Source of the DNA: a virus
Direction: 5' to 3' (one strand)
Virus genome (UHGV): UHGV-0095852
Length of the DNA: 28,110 nucleotides
Part shown: positions 860 through 15,291 of the stretch, in pieces
How positions within the stretch are numbered: the first letter of the stretch is position 1
Layout of the letters: every line of letters begins with the position of its first letter
Made by a program: the position numbers and the translations under genes
Notes under the pieces: generated by a model
What the model saw: the letters and a program-made list of their open reading frames with translations, nothing else
The model's database searches: none
What the model was told of the DNA's origin: nothing

Positions 860-880
860 AAATTAGATTTCTAACATATT
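860..880 (+). promoter_or_regulatory. operator-like motif, copy 2 (AAATTAGATTTCTAACATATT)
   Basis: 20 of 21 identical to copy 3; abuts the stop codon of the 879-2099 gene. Confidence 0.4.
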
Positions 881-2112: not shown

Positions 2113-2133
2113 AAATTAGTTTTCTAACATATT
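2113..2133 (+). promoter_or_regulatory. operator-like motif, copy 3 (AAATTAGTTTTCTAACATATT)
   Basis: Sits 14-34 bp upstream of the start codon of the 879-2099 gene; contains TTAG-N4-CTAA dyad. Confidence 0.4.
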
Positions 2134-2715: not shown

Positions 2716-3207
2716 TTAATCAAGACAAACATATTCCGTGATAGCTTTTATGGCTTCAGCGGCACTGCGCGCCTCAAAGCAGTAGTAACCTGCTTCGGTG
2801 AGGCGAGTCATCCAGACGAGTTGTTCGGGAGTCAGGCGATTTCTCCCATGTTTCATCTCAATGCGCATTCCGTGGTATCCCCCACAAGCAAGGTCTATAG
2901 AAAGATCGGGATATCCCTTCTTTTGGCCCTCTGCCACCATTTTTATTGCCGTCCTTATGCCTCGCAGACCGCCGTTTGGAGTGGCGTGTGTATGCTCATA
3001 CACATAGCGCATATTGCGATACAACCAATCCAGGACGCGTACCTGCTCGTAATGCTCATGGTTCCTTTTGATTAGATCTGGGTTTTTCTCCAGTTCTCTG
3101 AGAGCTGCGGCATGTGGGGATGTTTCAGAATATTCACTGCGACGCCTTCTTTTTCTCGCTATTTTTCTAACACACCCATTGATAGTAAATAAGCGAAATA
3201 ATAACAA
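2716..3207 (-). CDS. VRR-NUC-like (PD-(D/E)xK) nuclease; start uncertain, probably downstream of 3207
   Basis: GYPDLSIDL ... IEMK motif pattern typical of VRR-NUC; operator-like motif copy 4 lies inside the N-terminal extension, so the real start is probably later. Confidence 0.55.
   Translation of the reverse strand: MLLFRLFTINGCVRKIARKRRRRSEYSETSPHAAALRELEKNPDLIKRNHEHYEQVRVLDWLYRNMRYVYEHTHATPNGGLRGIRTAIKMVAEGQKKGYPDLSIDLACGGYHGMRIEMKHGRNRLTPEQLVWMTRLTEAGYYCFEARSAAEAIKAITEYVCLD
3158..3175 (+). promoter_or_regulatory. operator-like motif, copy 4 (TATTTTTCTAACAC)
   Basis: Same core as copies 1-3; positioned in the presumptive 5' region of the nuclease gene. Confidence 0.3.
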
Positions 3208-3346
3208 CTGCGTTAGATTTGTAAAACAAGAGAGATACTACTCAAGGCTGGGCTATATGCAACAGGTCGGATTTGCTTTTAGAGTAAAAAGTGACCTTAA
3301 TCAACAAGGAGGGTAAATCGCATGGCATTTACCCAACTTGTTATTT

Positions 3347-3607
3347 TTAAAGGTTTATTTTATCCGGTTCGGATATTTCTGTGATTGTCTTGTCGATTGC
3401 GATCAACCACCCTTCATAGGTTAAATCATCAACAAGCTCTACCAGTTTGTCTTCTGTATGAGGGAAGTATACCCAGCTCCAGCTCGCTGGGTTTTCTGCT
3501 TTTCGCAGCGTAAAAACCTTCTTGTAACGGTGAAACTCAAGGACATACCCCTTCGATATGGAATATTCCTTTAGGTCTTCGACCGTAAACCTACGATTCT
3601 TTCGCAT
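3347..3607 (-). CDS. hypothetical protein, 86 aa
   Basis: ATG start 2 nt after the stop of the upstream gene; GGGG run 8 nt upstream. Confidence 0.5.
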   Translation of the reverse strand: MRKNRRFTVEDLKEYSISKGYVLEFHRYKKVFTLRKAENPASWSWVYFPHTEDKLVELVDDLTYEGWLIAIDKTITEISEPDKINL

Positions 3608-3609
3608 GG

Positions 3610-4044
3610 CTACCCCATGATTCGATATTTCTCTATTGACTCGTCGTAACTTGTGTACACGTATGGCTCTGTATCATCAGCATAAGGTGCGACTTCCAGA
3701 GCATGAACGGGATTGTATACCGCGTCATTTTCCAGGCGATCGCTCGAATACAGATGCCCAGCCAAAACCGTAAGCGCCGGGCGACTCATTTTGTAGATCT
3801 CTGCCACATCACTATCTACAACTTGTCCAAATGATATGTCGCCGCGCTCCAGCAATATCGTTTTGAGCGCGGGCCACCACGGACCATAAAGGTGATAAAG
3901 CTGTGGATTTTTCTTCAGTCTTTCTACCATGCCATCAAGATAAACTGTCAGGTATTCTTCTTCACTCCTGCCATTGAGTGCCTGCGGCAAGATTTCCTCA
4001 AGGTAGGATTCCGTCGGTTTTACAGTGTCAATTAGTGTCGTCAT
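3610..4044 (-). CDS. hypothetical protein, 144 aa, immediately downstream of the DarB-like gene
   Basis: ORF with ATG start; position corresponds to the gene co-transcribed with darB in P1 (ulx) by recollection of synteny only. Confidence 0.5.
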   Translation of the reverse strand: MTTLIDTVKPTESYLEEILPQALNGRSEEEYLTVYLDGMVERLKKNPQLYHLYGPWWPALKTILLERGDISFGQVVDSDVAEIYKMSRPALTVLAGHLYSSDRLENDAVYNPVHALEVAPYADDTEPYVYTSYDESIEKYRIMG

Positions 4045-12717: not shown

Positions 12718-13046
12718 AGTTACGGCCTCACTAACAGGTTTAACAACCTGCTACCCGCTGTCAAACAGGTGGCAGGACGTGACAGGGTTGACAGACTGGC
12801 GTTAGTGAAACCAGCAGGCCTAAGCCTCCCCATCACGCCCCACCATAATTCGGGCGTAACGCGGTTTACGGACACAAAAATACCGCAATATCGGAAATCT
12901 GCGGTTGTCCGCACTAACATTCAGGCTGTCAAACCTGGTCGCAGAATTTGCTACGACGGCATGAATATAAGCCTGAAAACATGGAAGATCAACTAAAAAT
13001 TTCAGCAATGGATGACTTCAGTCGATGATGCAGATCATACATTCCG

Positions 13047-13080
13047 ATTTAGAAACAGCAAATTAATTTTCTAATACAAA
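13047..13080 (+). promoter_or_regulatory. operator-like motif, copy 5, composite dyad (ATTTAGAAA ... TTTTCTAAT)
   Basis: Two inverted half-sites 12 bp apart, upstream of the immunity-like operon. Confidence 0.4.
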
Positions 13081-13130: not shown

Positions 13131-14093
13131 TCATCCCCTAAATCCCGCAGGGATTGACCAATCCTCCCGGTCAAATTCAGACCGATAGCCACGCTGTTTC
13201 ATCAGGTCAAAGGCTTCACCAATGGTTGCACACCCCTGGGAGCCAGAATAATCCATTGAGAAATCCAGGGCACTGGATTGTTTAGGCTTATTCACTGCGG
13301 TAGCGGCACTACGTATCCATGCAAATTTTTTTGCCAGCTTTTCAGCGGTACGATACAGAGCCTGCCGTTTTGCGTGCCCCTCGTCTGAACGACGCTTTGC
13401 AGCTCTCGCTTTTGCCGCCGCCAGGCAGTGGTTGGTATGTTCTTCCCTGATTACTGGTTTTTTATCCAGTAATCCATTATCCGCTTGGGAACTATCTGCT
13501 GGTGAAGCCTTTGGCTGAACCGCGCATGATCTTTCTCTTCTTTTGGCTATAGAGTGACTCTTATTTTCTATTGGCTGTTCATTTTGAACATGGGGGGACT
13601 TGTTCAATTTGAACAGGGGGTTCCCAGTTTCAAAAAAATACCGAACCTTTGAAATCAACTGCTTAACCAGTTTTGTGGCGTTCGCAAATTTGATGCCCTG
13701 CTTACCCCCTATCTCCATTGCTACATGAATGAAGTGGAGAAATTGTGTTGTAAACCGGTATACGTTACACACCTGAGCATTGTTATTCGCTACCTGATGT
13801 TGCTTAACAAGCATTCCGCACTTCGTCGCTTCAGCAAATGCCCGGCGCACAGTAGAAATACTGCGTCCTGTAATCTCGGACATATCAGCATATGAGCGAC
13901 GGATCATGTATTCATCGGTAGCTCCTGCCAGGTTGGCGAACTCGGCAATAATGGCGCTATGTGAAGGGGAAAGAAAACCGCTATGACGAGCAAAAAAACT
14001 CAACTGATGACCTTTGATTTTTTTGTGGTATTCAGTGTTGTTTTTATACTCAGAAGTGTTGAAAGTTACTGAAACTGAATTTAAAATACTCAT
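13131..14093 (-). CDS. hypothetical HTH protein, 320 aa; possible RepL-like lytic replication protein with internal origin-like repeats
   Basis: HTH-like segment ISTVRRAFAEATKCGMLV; dense direct and inverted repeats inside the coding sequence at 13509-13656. Confidence 0.55.
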   Translation of the reverse strand: MSILNSVSVTFNTSEYKNNTEYHKKIKGHQLSFFARHSGFLSPSHSAIIAEFANLAGATDEYMIRRSYADMSEITGRSISTVRRAFAEATKCGMLVKQHQVANNNAQVCNVYRFTTQFLHFIHVAMEIGGKQGIKFANATKLVKQLISKVRYFFETGNPLFKLNKSPHVQNEQPIENKSHSIAKRRERSCAVQPKASPADSSQADNGLLDKKPVIREEHTNHCLAAAKARAAKRRSDEGHAKRQALYRTAEKLAKKFAWIRSAATAVNKPKQSSALDFSMDYSGSQGCATIGEAFDLMKQRGYRSEFDREDWSIPAGFRG

Positions 14094-14150
14094 CAGATAG
14101 TACCGTGAAAAATCTATCTACCGTATAAATCTATGTCCGGAGATTTATAC

Positions 14151-14189
14151 ACCCAAAAGCCGCTTCTCAGCGGCTTTTGCTTTTTTCGG
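14151..14189. terminator. rho-independent terminator, stem GCCGCT/AGCGGC, with TTTTGCTTTTTT on the plus side and TTTT on the minus side
   Basis: Hairpin 14159-14174 read directly; lies between the protease-like gene and the 320-aa gene. Confidence 0.5.
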
Positions 14190-14261
14190 CAGTCGCTACC
14201 GGAGCAGTGACCGCGATCCTACTCGATCACATCGGACAGGATCAACAGTGTATATAAATAC

Positions 14262-14283
14262 ACTATGTTAGAAATTTAACTTC
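14262..14283 (-). promoter_or_regulatory. operator-like motif, copy 6 (minus-strand reading GAAGTTAAATTTCTAACATAGT), overlapping palindrome AGTGTAT-ATAA-ATACACT
   Basis: Same TTTCTAACA core in the opposite orientation; intergenic. Confidence 0.35.
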
Positions 14284-14292
14284 ATGCAGCGG

Positions 14293-15291
14293 TTATGCCC
14301 GTCGCGAAACGAAGAGTAATGGGGTAGTATTTTTGCTATCCTTCGGCGATAACTCCGGCTCTTTCTTGCCTGATATCGGCAAGCCATAAGTCGCATTTGC
14401 CCCCAGAGATTCAAGCATCGCAGCCACTATGCGAGCATCATCTTCAGACTGCATACGGCAGAGCGCCCGACGCTGTTCTGCGCTGATAAAAACAGGCATT
14501 TCCTGGATAGCGTCACGCAAAATCCGACGGCATTGCTTTGCATTTTCCCCCTGGCTTTCCATCATCGCTGTTTGAGCGCGCAGCTTATCTCGAAGCTGTA
14601 TGTTTTCCACTTCAAGGAGCATCAATTCTGATTCCAGGGCTTCACGATGTGCAGATTCGAGCATGGCTTGCTGATTTTTCATTGCTGAAAAGTGGTGAAC
14701 CAGATCCGTAGCAGCGTTATCGGTAAAACCTTGTTCGATAAGTGCTGCATGAATAGCCGCATCGCGCTCTTCTGCTGATTCAAGCATCAGGCTTTTCTTG
14801 TCGAGGCTGATATAGTTAGGCACAGTTACGTAATCAAAGCCGTGGAAAGACTTTACCAGGGATACCGATGAATCTGGACCAGATGTAGCCCACGACCAAC
14901 CACCAGCACCAGAATTAATCATGCCCTGAACAATACGCCCGGTGTCTGTATCCAGTATTTCCTGCGTATGGGTAACAATGCCGTTGTCGTCAATCGAAAT
15001 GTCGATAGTCCTGTTGGATGGCACGTTCTCCAATACAACAGGCTTCCCATCTACCATCACAACAGAGACTTCCGGCAAGTTCAGGCTTTTCGTTTTGTTA
15101 TAGTGCATCGCCCGGCGACCATGACCGTAATAACCATACATCTCACCCAGCGCGATACGCTCTTTTGTTTCTGGCGAGTTGAATGTGTCTCGTACCGACT
15201 GAATGACGTAATTTCGGTTGTTCTGCGGTGTGTGTTTGCGGATTTTCTCTACCAGGGAGAAGCGATCCGTAACAGTATTCAGTGATTGCAT
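14293..15291 (-). CDS. putative prohead protease or scaffold protein (Pro-like)
   Basis: Placed directly after the portal-like gene; His- and Ser-containing N-terminal half and coiled-coil C-terminal half; assignment by context. Confidence 0.5.
   Translation of the reverse strand: MQSLNTVTDRFSLVEKIRKHTPQNNRNYVIQSVRDTFNSPETKERIALGEMYGYYGHGRRAMHYNKTKSLNLPEVSVVMVDGKPVVLENVPSNRTIDISIDDNGIVTHTQEILDTDTGRIVQGMINSGAGGWSWATSGPDSSVSLVKSFHGFDYVTVPNYISLDKKSLMLESAEERDAAIHAALIEQGFTDNAATDLVHHFSAMKNQQAMLESAHREALESELMLLEVENIQLRDKLRAQTAMMESQGENAKQCRRILRDAIQEMPVFISAEQRRALCRMQSEDDARIVAAMLESLGANATYGLPISGKKEPELSPKDSKNTTPLLFVSRRA

Follow-up and report, generated by a model that had tools for sequence, protein, structure and literature searches.

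Where phage P1 and its relatives start lytic replication, and how the origin, oriL, is built, has to our knowledge been an open question since 1989. The virus genome UHGV-0095852 raises it again. In this stretch of 28,110 nucleotides (nt), referred to here as the window, the minus strand carries at 13131-14093 an open reading frame (ORF) of 320 amino acids (aa), which a sequence-only reading had proposed to be a RepL-type initiator gene with origin-like repeats both inside and upstream of it. Our analysis indicates that the segment is probably the lytic replicon of a D6-like phage-plasmid, encoding an initiator of the RepL family and carrying the putative lytic origin inside the initiator's own gene. 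The features on which this proposal depends are the following.

13131..14093, minus strand: gene for a repL-type lytic replication initiator (320-aa ORF; P1 RepL by BLASTP, phrog_2418, D6 orf20 and the AlphaFold2 (AF2) model)
13628..13665, plus strand: A/T tract with inverted TTTCAAA/TTTGAAA and an integration host factor (IHF) core consensus, 5' of the dyads in gene orientation
13601..13615, gene nt 479-493: dyad 1, perfect 15-bp palindrome TGTTCA-AAT-TGAACA (TGTTCAATTTGAACA), candidate auxiliary RepL site
13576..13590, gene nt 504-518: dyad 2, perfect 15-bp palindrome TGTTCA-AAA-TGAACA (TGTTCATTTTGAACA), candidate primary RepL site
~13524..13575, minus (coding) strand: A/purine-rich tract, placed as AT2 is in P1 (positional homologue) and a candidate element for DNA unwinding

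In the mechanism that we propose, loss of the prophage repressor would allow repL to be transcribed, and RepL, probably as a dimer and through its N-terminal winged helix, would bind the two palindromes at 13576-13590 and 13601-13615, that is, within the DNA that codes for what is predicted to be its own disordered linker. The A-rich tract at ~13524-13575 would then melt, possibly with the help of IHF bound at 13653-13665 and of transcription passing the site, and the melted tract would let the host replisome load. Expression would be controlled from a putative D6-type C1 operator at 14263-14282 and possibly by an antisense RNA running from 14059-14087 to 14154-14189.

Identity of the initiator gene

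The identity of the gene is already public, and nothing at this level is new. The ORF is 97.8% identical to orf20 of phage D6, which the D6 record annotates as 'lytic replication protein; similar to P1 gene repL', and the whole segment is 97.4% identical to D6. Positions 13131-14300 are 100% identical to the E. coli plasmid NZ_CP135715.1, and the gene region is present in 111 plasmid records, where the name, among those listed, is mostly 'lytic replication protein'; the RefSeq plasmids given this label number over 100, in agreement with the D6 record.

The proposal of a RepL-type initiator was borne out by several comparisons. BLASTP aligned the window protein with P1 RepL at 29% identity and E 1e-28 (residues 28-320 vs 20-281), and the two proteins have the C-terminal IPAGFRG in common; in the family alignments this (I/V)P.GFRG motif and an N-terminal helix-turn-helix (HTH) core (STVRRA) are conserved, and both are present in the window protein. 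The phrog_2418 profile matched the window protein at 5e-130 and P1 RepL at 9e-157, and phrog_8046 and phrog_7057 were also matched by both. PF26868 (Phage_P1_RepL) is precomputed for P0001, the cluster representative that is 99% identical to the window protein, and also for P0008 and P0011; in our own Pfam-A scan PF26868 came up neither for the window protein nor for P1 RepL, whereas the precomputed tables list it for these close relatives. Matches by tblastn lay in 23 phage records (P1, P7, SJ46 and RCS47 included) and fell only on annotated repL or lytic replication genes. NCBIfam gave no match, and the family is small: a search of 1.8 billion proteins yielded 29 cluster representatives at E <= 0.001. 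Taken together, the comparisons show that the window protein and P1 RepL are genuinely homologous.

PF05732, the family against which the sequence-only reading had suggested checking this assignment, turned out to be the wrong yardstick. It did not match the window protein at E <= 1, nor did it match P1 RepL, and because P1 RepL itself has no match, PF05732 cannot decide membership. We take it to be a Firmicute plasmid protein from an unrelated family that shares only the RepL name; the likeness goes no further than that name and a role in replication.

We also considered that the gene might encode an ordinary HTH transcription regulator, or an anti-repressor of the immunity region, instead of an initiator. 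The sole Pfam match of the protein is a sub-threshold one to HTH_36 (PF13730; 18 bits vs a cutoff of 25, E 0.0026, residues 41-93), the Foldseek matches, none below E 1e-3, are to winged-helix regulators of a generic kind (MarR and TFE among them), and the gene adjoins c4-icd-ant. Against this stand homology over the full length to P1 RepL, a protein with an experimentally established role in replication (PMC9948254), the PHROG and Pfam families that the protein has in common with P1 RepL, and the match of the RepL N-terminal domain, at 2e-7, to the N-terminal half of phrog_391, a family of 'O-like' initiators. We regard a purely regulatory protein as extremely improbable. A sequence search of the PDB returned just artefactual matches to designed repeats and weak HTH ones.

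Palindromes, the A-rich tract and their P1 counterparts

Every motif listed in the sequence-only reading was present, at or within 1-2 nt of where it had been placed. The cluster described there as symmetric proved stronger than described: it consists of two perfect palindromes, and the left arm of the first had been missed. Each palindrome is preceded on the coding strand by a run of cytosines, C5 at 13616-13620 before dyad 1 and C6 at 13591-13596 before dyad 2, and on the plus strand palindrome and G-run together form a 20-nt direct repeat with a period of 25 bp. The pattern TGTTCA-N3-TGAACA had no copy elsewhere in the window, and in the 91-kb D6 genome it occurs at these two sites only, against 0.007 expected.

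The A-rich tract, which is a candidate DNA-unwinding element, contains two 16-nt repeats (AGCCAAWAGAARAGAA) at 13533-13548 and 13561-13576 with 81% identity and terminates in GAAAGATCATGC, with a GATC at 13528-13531. Its A-rich strand bias corresponds to an AT skew of -0.56; GC/AT skew as an origin signature was rejected, as on a short window it shows this strand bias only. The TTGGCT(A/G) repeats of the sequence-only reading are there on the plus strand, at 13511, 13543 and 13571, and two of them lie within the 16-nt direct repeat; as a 7-mer they carry little weight, with 14 copies in the whole window against 8.1 expected. They are the complement of the tract equivalent to P1 AT2. On the other side of the dyads, TTTCAAA/TTTGAAA occupies 13628-13655 and the IHF core consensus AATCAACTGCTTA lies at 13653-13665, one of 3 in the window; P1 repL has its IHF/AT1 site in the equivalent place.

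The cis-acting part of P1 repL has been delimited experimentally. AT2 is a 43-bp A/T-rich stretch at repL nt ~495-540 in which synonymous changes abolish RepL-driven amplification in cis, while changes in the IHF/AT1 site (whose layout is given in the supplement of that study) or in the DnaA boxes do not abolish it (PMC9948254). A truncated, non-coding fragment, T5, was functional in trans; its primer starts CCCCTCCCCCTGTCAGGATGACGTGGCAATAAAG and the fragment itself starts at CCCCTCCCCCTGTCAGGATGACG (PMC9948254, supplement). Because the primer begins at CCCCTCCCCCTGTCAGGATGACGTGGCAATAAAG, T5 includes the second of two P1 repeats together with AT2. The authors noted a C/G-rich sequence before AT2 and left its role, and the place where RepL binds, undetermined (PMC9948254).

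The order of elements on the two coding strands matches. In P1 a DnaA box TTATCCACA at nt 442-450 is followed by a C-run, TGTCAAAATGATA at 457-469, a second C-run, TGTCAGGATGACG at 481-493 and AT2, which on the aligned coding strand occupies nt 496-539 and ends AAAAAGATC. In the window the order is C5, TGTTCAAATTGAACA at gene nt 479-493, C6, an A, TGTTCAAAATGAACA at nt 504-518 and then the A-rich tract, AGCCAATAGAAAATAAGAG...AGCCAAAAGAAGAGAAAGATCATGC, through gene nt 570. Since the aligned order is the same, the cluster of the sequence-only reading corresponds to the two P1 repeats: dyad 1 is homologous to P1 TGTCAAAATGATA, and dyad 2 to P1 TGTCAGGATGACG, which the minimal T5 keeps. The internal repeats of the window thus occupy the position homologous to dyad 2 plus AT2, which in P1 repL is the one segment with a demonstrated action in cis, and this position, together with the signs of DNA-level selection given below, supports the suggestion of an origin inside the gene.

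The likeness to the P1 lytic replicon goes further. Both have an IHF-like/AT site, a C-run plus dyad repeated twice and an A-rich tract ending at GATC; both belong to a P1-like phage-plasmid and encode a RepL of the same length class; and both have a repressor-operator-like site upstream and an antisense promoter, a predicted one in the window, near the 5' end of the transcription unit. They differ in the dyad arms, which are perfect TGTTCA/TGAACA placed 25 bp apart in the window and imperfect TGTCA/TGAC(A) placed 24 bp apart in P1, in the DnaA box, present in P1 and absent from the D6 type, in the sequence of the operator, and in the hairpin terminator that the D6 type has between operator and gene. 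We infer the place of the putative D6-type origin from positional homology with P1.

These comparisons also bear on an alternative in which RepL binds the palindromes, but as an intragenic autoregulatory operator or roadblock, with the origin residing in the A-rich tract alone or elsewhere, for instance in the upstream repeats. The palindromes are of a size typical of repressor operators, function in the P1 experiments was assigned to AT2, with the dyad alone left out, and conserved inverted repeats do exist in the upstream region. In every lineage, however, the A-rich tract begins right beside the dyad, dyad 2 is retained in the shortest P1 fragment able to replicate in trans, and no dyad copy lies near the promoter region; as to the upstream repeats, they are limited to the D6/L025 lineage and better fit a leader, an antisense RNA or a terminator. 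We consider this alternative unlikely. Returning to the dyads as origin sites, dyad 2, which adjoins the A-rich tract, is probably essential and dyad 1 auxiliary, because dyad 2 is the better conserved, is the sole copy with a full core in several lineages and is kept in P1 T5.

Evidence for constraint on the DNA and a proposed architecture of the family

Constraint on the protein was a serious rival explanation of the internal segment, but five lines of evidence argue that the constraint acts on the DNA. The palindromes of the D6 lineage are 25, not 24, bp apart, which puts the same 15-mer into two reading frames, giving LFKLN and VQNE. The density of polymorphism among close variants was uninformative; informative comparisons came from the E. 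fergusonii-type locus L025, whose protein is 65% identical, and from the P1 lineage. Compared with L025, the dyad arms are unchanged at 24/24 bases and the spacers at 3/6; nucleotide identity is 81.8% over gene nt 471-580 and 69.7% over the whole gene, and in the same segment 30/37 third-codon positions are identical, as against 49.8% gene-wide. In the close variants themselves, changes within the palindromes are confined to a spacer and the rest lie in the flanks. Among 63 unique sequences of the P1 lineage there are 0 variable sites in nt 481-510 and 2 in nt 451-480, while the neighbouring 30-nt bins mostly have 7-10.

Covariation of the arms was examined in 16 loci of distinct lineages (D6-like, E. 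fergusonii type, Enterobacter type, P1, two further P1-related types, Pantoea and a distant group). The core TCA-N3-TGA is present at the site adjoining the A-rich tract in all 16, and the next outward base pair of the arm is A/T in 7 loci, G/C in 5, T/A in 2 and mismatched in 2. Arm cells are complementary in 91.7% of cases, and the covariation score of 0.307, compared with 0.112 in shuffles, was reached by 0/500 of these; the set is small, its members are related, and its three inner arm pairs are fixed by the anchoring of the site. In the right arm, the synonymous choice between GAT and GAC follows the base of the left arm.

The opposite explanation is that the internal repeats are a by-product of protein constraint, with no function in cis. 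At the position of the dyads, all distant homologues have a tandem 8-aa peptide, PPxQ(N/S)D, with a lysine-rich stretch after it, and the two DNA units share a frame in most lineages. A peptide requirement, however, fits poorly with a 15-mer of the D6 lineage that is translated in two frames into unrelated peptides, with the conservation of synonymous positions, with a GAT/GAC choice that follows the opposite arm, and with the predicted disorder of the region, and in P1 purely synonymous changes in AT2 destroy the cis function (PMC9948254). We judge this explanation very unlikely.

The AF2 model points in the same direction as the DNA evidence for a site within linker-coding DNA. It shows a confident winged-helix domain and helices at aa 19-157 and a helical C-terminal part ending in IPAGFRG; between them, aa 159-215, coded by the dyads and the A-rich tract, have a predicted local distance difference test (pLDDT) score of ~30 and are predicted to form a disordered linker. 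The arrangement resembles that of phage lambda, where the origin also lies within the initiator gene, in the linker-coding part between N-terminal DNA-binding and C-terminal domains, and where, on the coding strand in the lambda record, repeated dyad-symmetric initiator sites are directly followed by an A-rich tract. Both lambda O/ori-lambda and RepL/oriL depend on transcription that passes through the origin or close to it. The two differ in that lambda has four 18-19-bp iterons before its A-rich run and the window two 15-bp dyads, and the C-terminal part of RepL is unrelated to the P-binding domain of lambda O. Homology to lambda O was considered and rejected (hhalign E 0.39); PF04492, the family of lambda O-type initiators (phrog_277), had no match to the window protein in the Pfam scan, and lambda O matches the C-terminal half of phrog_391, the RepL N-terminal domain the N-terminal half. 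The best-supported reading is that RepL/oriL has an architecture like that of lambda O/ori-lambda without a detectable sequence relationship.

From the comparison of lineages we put forward, with a little more confidence than doubt, a joint proposal for the family. Every RepL gene would have one or two TCA-N3-TGA dyads beside an A-rich unwinding tract in the DNA of its own linker; the dyads would be the sites of RepL dimers, with the outer arms (TTCA, ATCA, GTCA) setting lineage specificity and co-evolving with the initiator; and RepL/oriL would be a non-homologous counterpart of lambda O/ori-lambda, of which the D6 type would offer orthogonal pairs.

Several considerations weigh against the lytic replicon that we propose. 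We found no experiments on any D6-type element in the literature, and its replication, RepL binding and repressor control are what we infer. The P1 work on AT2 and T5 leaves dyad 2 and AT2 unseparated, and no DnaA box was found at <=1 mismatch in or near the gene, unlike in P1. In 21 close D6-like variants, polymorphism in the origin segment is not clearly lower than in the part coding for the N-terminal domain. The dyads of most lineages are in frame and code the recurrent PPxQ(N/S)D, so that protein-level constraint is possible there. The AF2 model is moderate, with a mean pLDDT of 60, and was built from 8 sequences. Lastly, the C1-operator-like site of repL, described below, lies 170-190 nt upstream, faces away from repL and is separated from it by a terminator hairpin, and no sigma-70 promoter for repL met the criteria of the minus-strand scan, the candidates picked by hand being weak.

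What is added to the known gene is comparative, namely a precise origin model with a candidate minimal origin of ~100 bp. The D6-type palindrome, read in two frames, separates DNA constraint from protein constraint and points to a specific candidate RepL site beside the AT2 equivalent. The model could explain how related phage-plasmids maintain separate lytic replicons, and copy-number amplifiers, which have already been built from P1 RepL, might gain orthogonal RepL/origin pairs from it.

Some loci showed further peculiarities. The 89.9-kb contig IMGVR_UViG_3300025735_000294 (loci L126 and L128) carries two divergent RepL paralogues ~38 kb apart, each with a dyad pair, TGTTCA/TGAACA and GGTCA/TGACC in one and TGTCA and AGTCA/TGAC in the other, which suggests that the element either is a recombinant or has two separate lytic origins. 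In the central region of repL of the Enterobacter type and of the distant lineages (L029 at 3001-3918, L031, L036-L042) each dyad arm contains GATC, as TGATCA-N3-TGATCA, and their putative initiator sites would be Dam-methylated, unlike the D6 and P1 dyads. The DnaA box TTATCCACA lies directly before dyad 1, as in P1, in Pantoea (L034, L035), where it is perfect, and in L126, where it is near-perfect; the D6-like and Enterobacter types have none.

The upstream region and the gene neighbourhood

The sequence-only reading had also taken the repeats upstream of the gene as origin-like and had noted an operator-like motif among them. The direct repeats, the inverted repeat, the terminator and the palindrome AGTGTAT-ATAA-ATACACT that it listed are all present, in a region with the following features.

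14263..14282, plus strand: D6-type C1-operator-like 20-mer CTATGTTAGAAATTTAACTT, with the stop codon of pro on one side and the hairpin on the other (position weight matrix (PWM) scan)
14248..14265: palindrome AGTGTAT-ATAA-ATACACT, which overlaps the operator-like motif
14209..14243: imperfect inverted repeat GATCCTACTCGAT / ATCGGACAGGATC that holds three GATC (Dam) sites and lies between the hairpin and the operator-like motif
14154..14189, plus strand: hairpin terminator with an 11-bp stem, with a strong T-run on the plus strand and only UUUU on the minus strand
14123..14150, repL leader: inverted repeat GTATAAATCT-N8-AGATTTATAC, with 10-nt arms that are 100% complementary
14059..14087, plus strand: promoter-like TTGAAA-17-TAAAAT (10/12), inside repL codons 3-12, facing the terminator and away from the gene
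13060..13079, minus strand: another operator-like 20-mer, TTGTATTAGAAAATTAATTT, past the repL stop and ahead of the c4 promoter region

As for the operator, the P1 C1 consensus ATTGCTCTAATAAATTT had no match at <=3 mismatches; what lies upstream is a different, D6-type, operator-like 20-mer (WTRTGTTAGAAAWYTAAWTT). It has 4 copies in the window, at 860-879 (-), 2113-2132 (-), 13060-13079 (-) and 14263-14282 (+), and its 11-mer core also occurs 4 times, against 0.39 expected. In D6 the PWM scan located 9 sites, at 196, 9066, 10315, 21260, 22464, 75977, 76630, 80722 and 89945, with copies directly 5' of c1, c4 and ref and also upstream of repL and pmgS. The 20-mer is asymmetric and its copies are of two classes by orientation: those that stand immediately before a gene start point the same way as the gene, and those that stand immediately after the stop codon of the preceding gene point the opposite way. 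In the P1 record, C1 controls the counterparts of genes flanked by the 20-mer (c1, c4, repL), and ref is under C1 in P1 as well. The 20-mer is, from its distribution, the probable C1 operator of D6. A P1 late promoter was considered in its place; the LPsit sequence is unlike the 20-mer, and the C1 operator was judged likelier. The copy at 13060-13079 parallels Oc4/Op51 of P1 and belongs to the adjoining immI module.

The upstream repeats themselves look regulatory, being leader hairpins and a terminator, not origin-like as had been claimed. The palindrome at 14248-14265, largely kept in the D6-like variants and in the lineage with 65% identity, is possibly a promoter or the site of a second regulator. 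The GATC trio at 14209-14243 recalls the three Dam sites that the P1 record places in the kilA/repL regulatory region. The hairpin at 14154-14189 is kept in L025 with a changed loop, and it may end an antisense RNA of the plus strand and/or terminate transcription bidirectionally after pro. Copies of the direct repeat AAATCTAT lie at 14111 and 14128, and in the inverted repeat at 14123-14150 the arms are conserved among relatives and the loop is variable, as in kissing-loop antisense RNAs.

Both hexamers of the promoter-like site at 14059-14087 are conserved in L025, as is the hairpin, in a leader that has otherwise diverged. A predicted RNA of ~95 nt (~14094-14189) over the repL start would form three hairpins, with a fold z of -5.0. 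An antisense RNA that starts from 14059-14087, ends at 14154-14189 and parallels PaskilA of P1 is possible, although we lean towards doubting it: in principle the complementary strand would fold just as well, and all that the Enterobacter lineage has is a bidirectional terminator. Relative to the window, the L025 leader (~1900-2000 of that locus) has a 44-bp insertion between the inverted repeat and the start codon, and its hairpin loops differ while the stems are retained.

The order of genes around repL is not that of P1. In the window and in D6 it runs prt, pro, repL, c4, icd, ant, with a pro to repL spacer of 199 bp, and in P1 c4, icd, ant, kilA, repL. Rfam placed the C4 antisense RNA at 12765-12850 (-) with 68 bits and the a1/b1 target element at 12918-12970 (-) with 54 bits, directly 3' of repL and on the same strand, which puts the immI module (c4-icd-ant) after repL; in P1 it precedes kilA-repL. 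A relation to KilA-N, a further check proposed by the sequence-only reading, found no support: there was no KilA-N profile match in Pfam at E <= 1, and neither the ORFs, this Pfam scan nor the D6 annotation gave a kilA gene upstream or a KilA-N domain. P1 RepL had no match to any Pfam family in the same library, so that KilA-N, like PF05732, is uninformative as a check. Because kilA is not needed for P1 replication (PMC9948254), the kilA-repL operon, missing here, is not a core feature. Elsewhere in D6, MF356679.1 carries at 74022-75178 (L130, 36022-37178) a second pair of icd-like and anti-repressor genes, orf83 and orf82, additional to the c4-icd-ant module beside repL.

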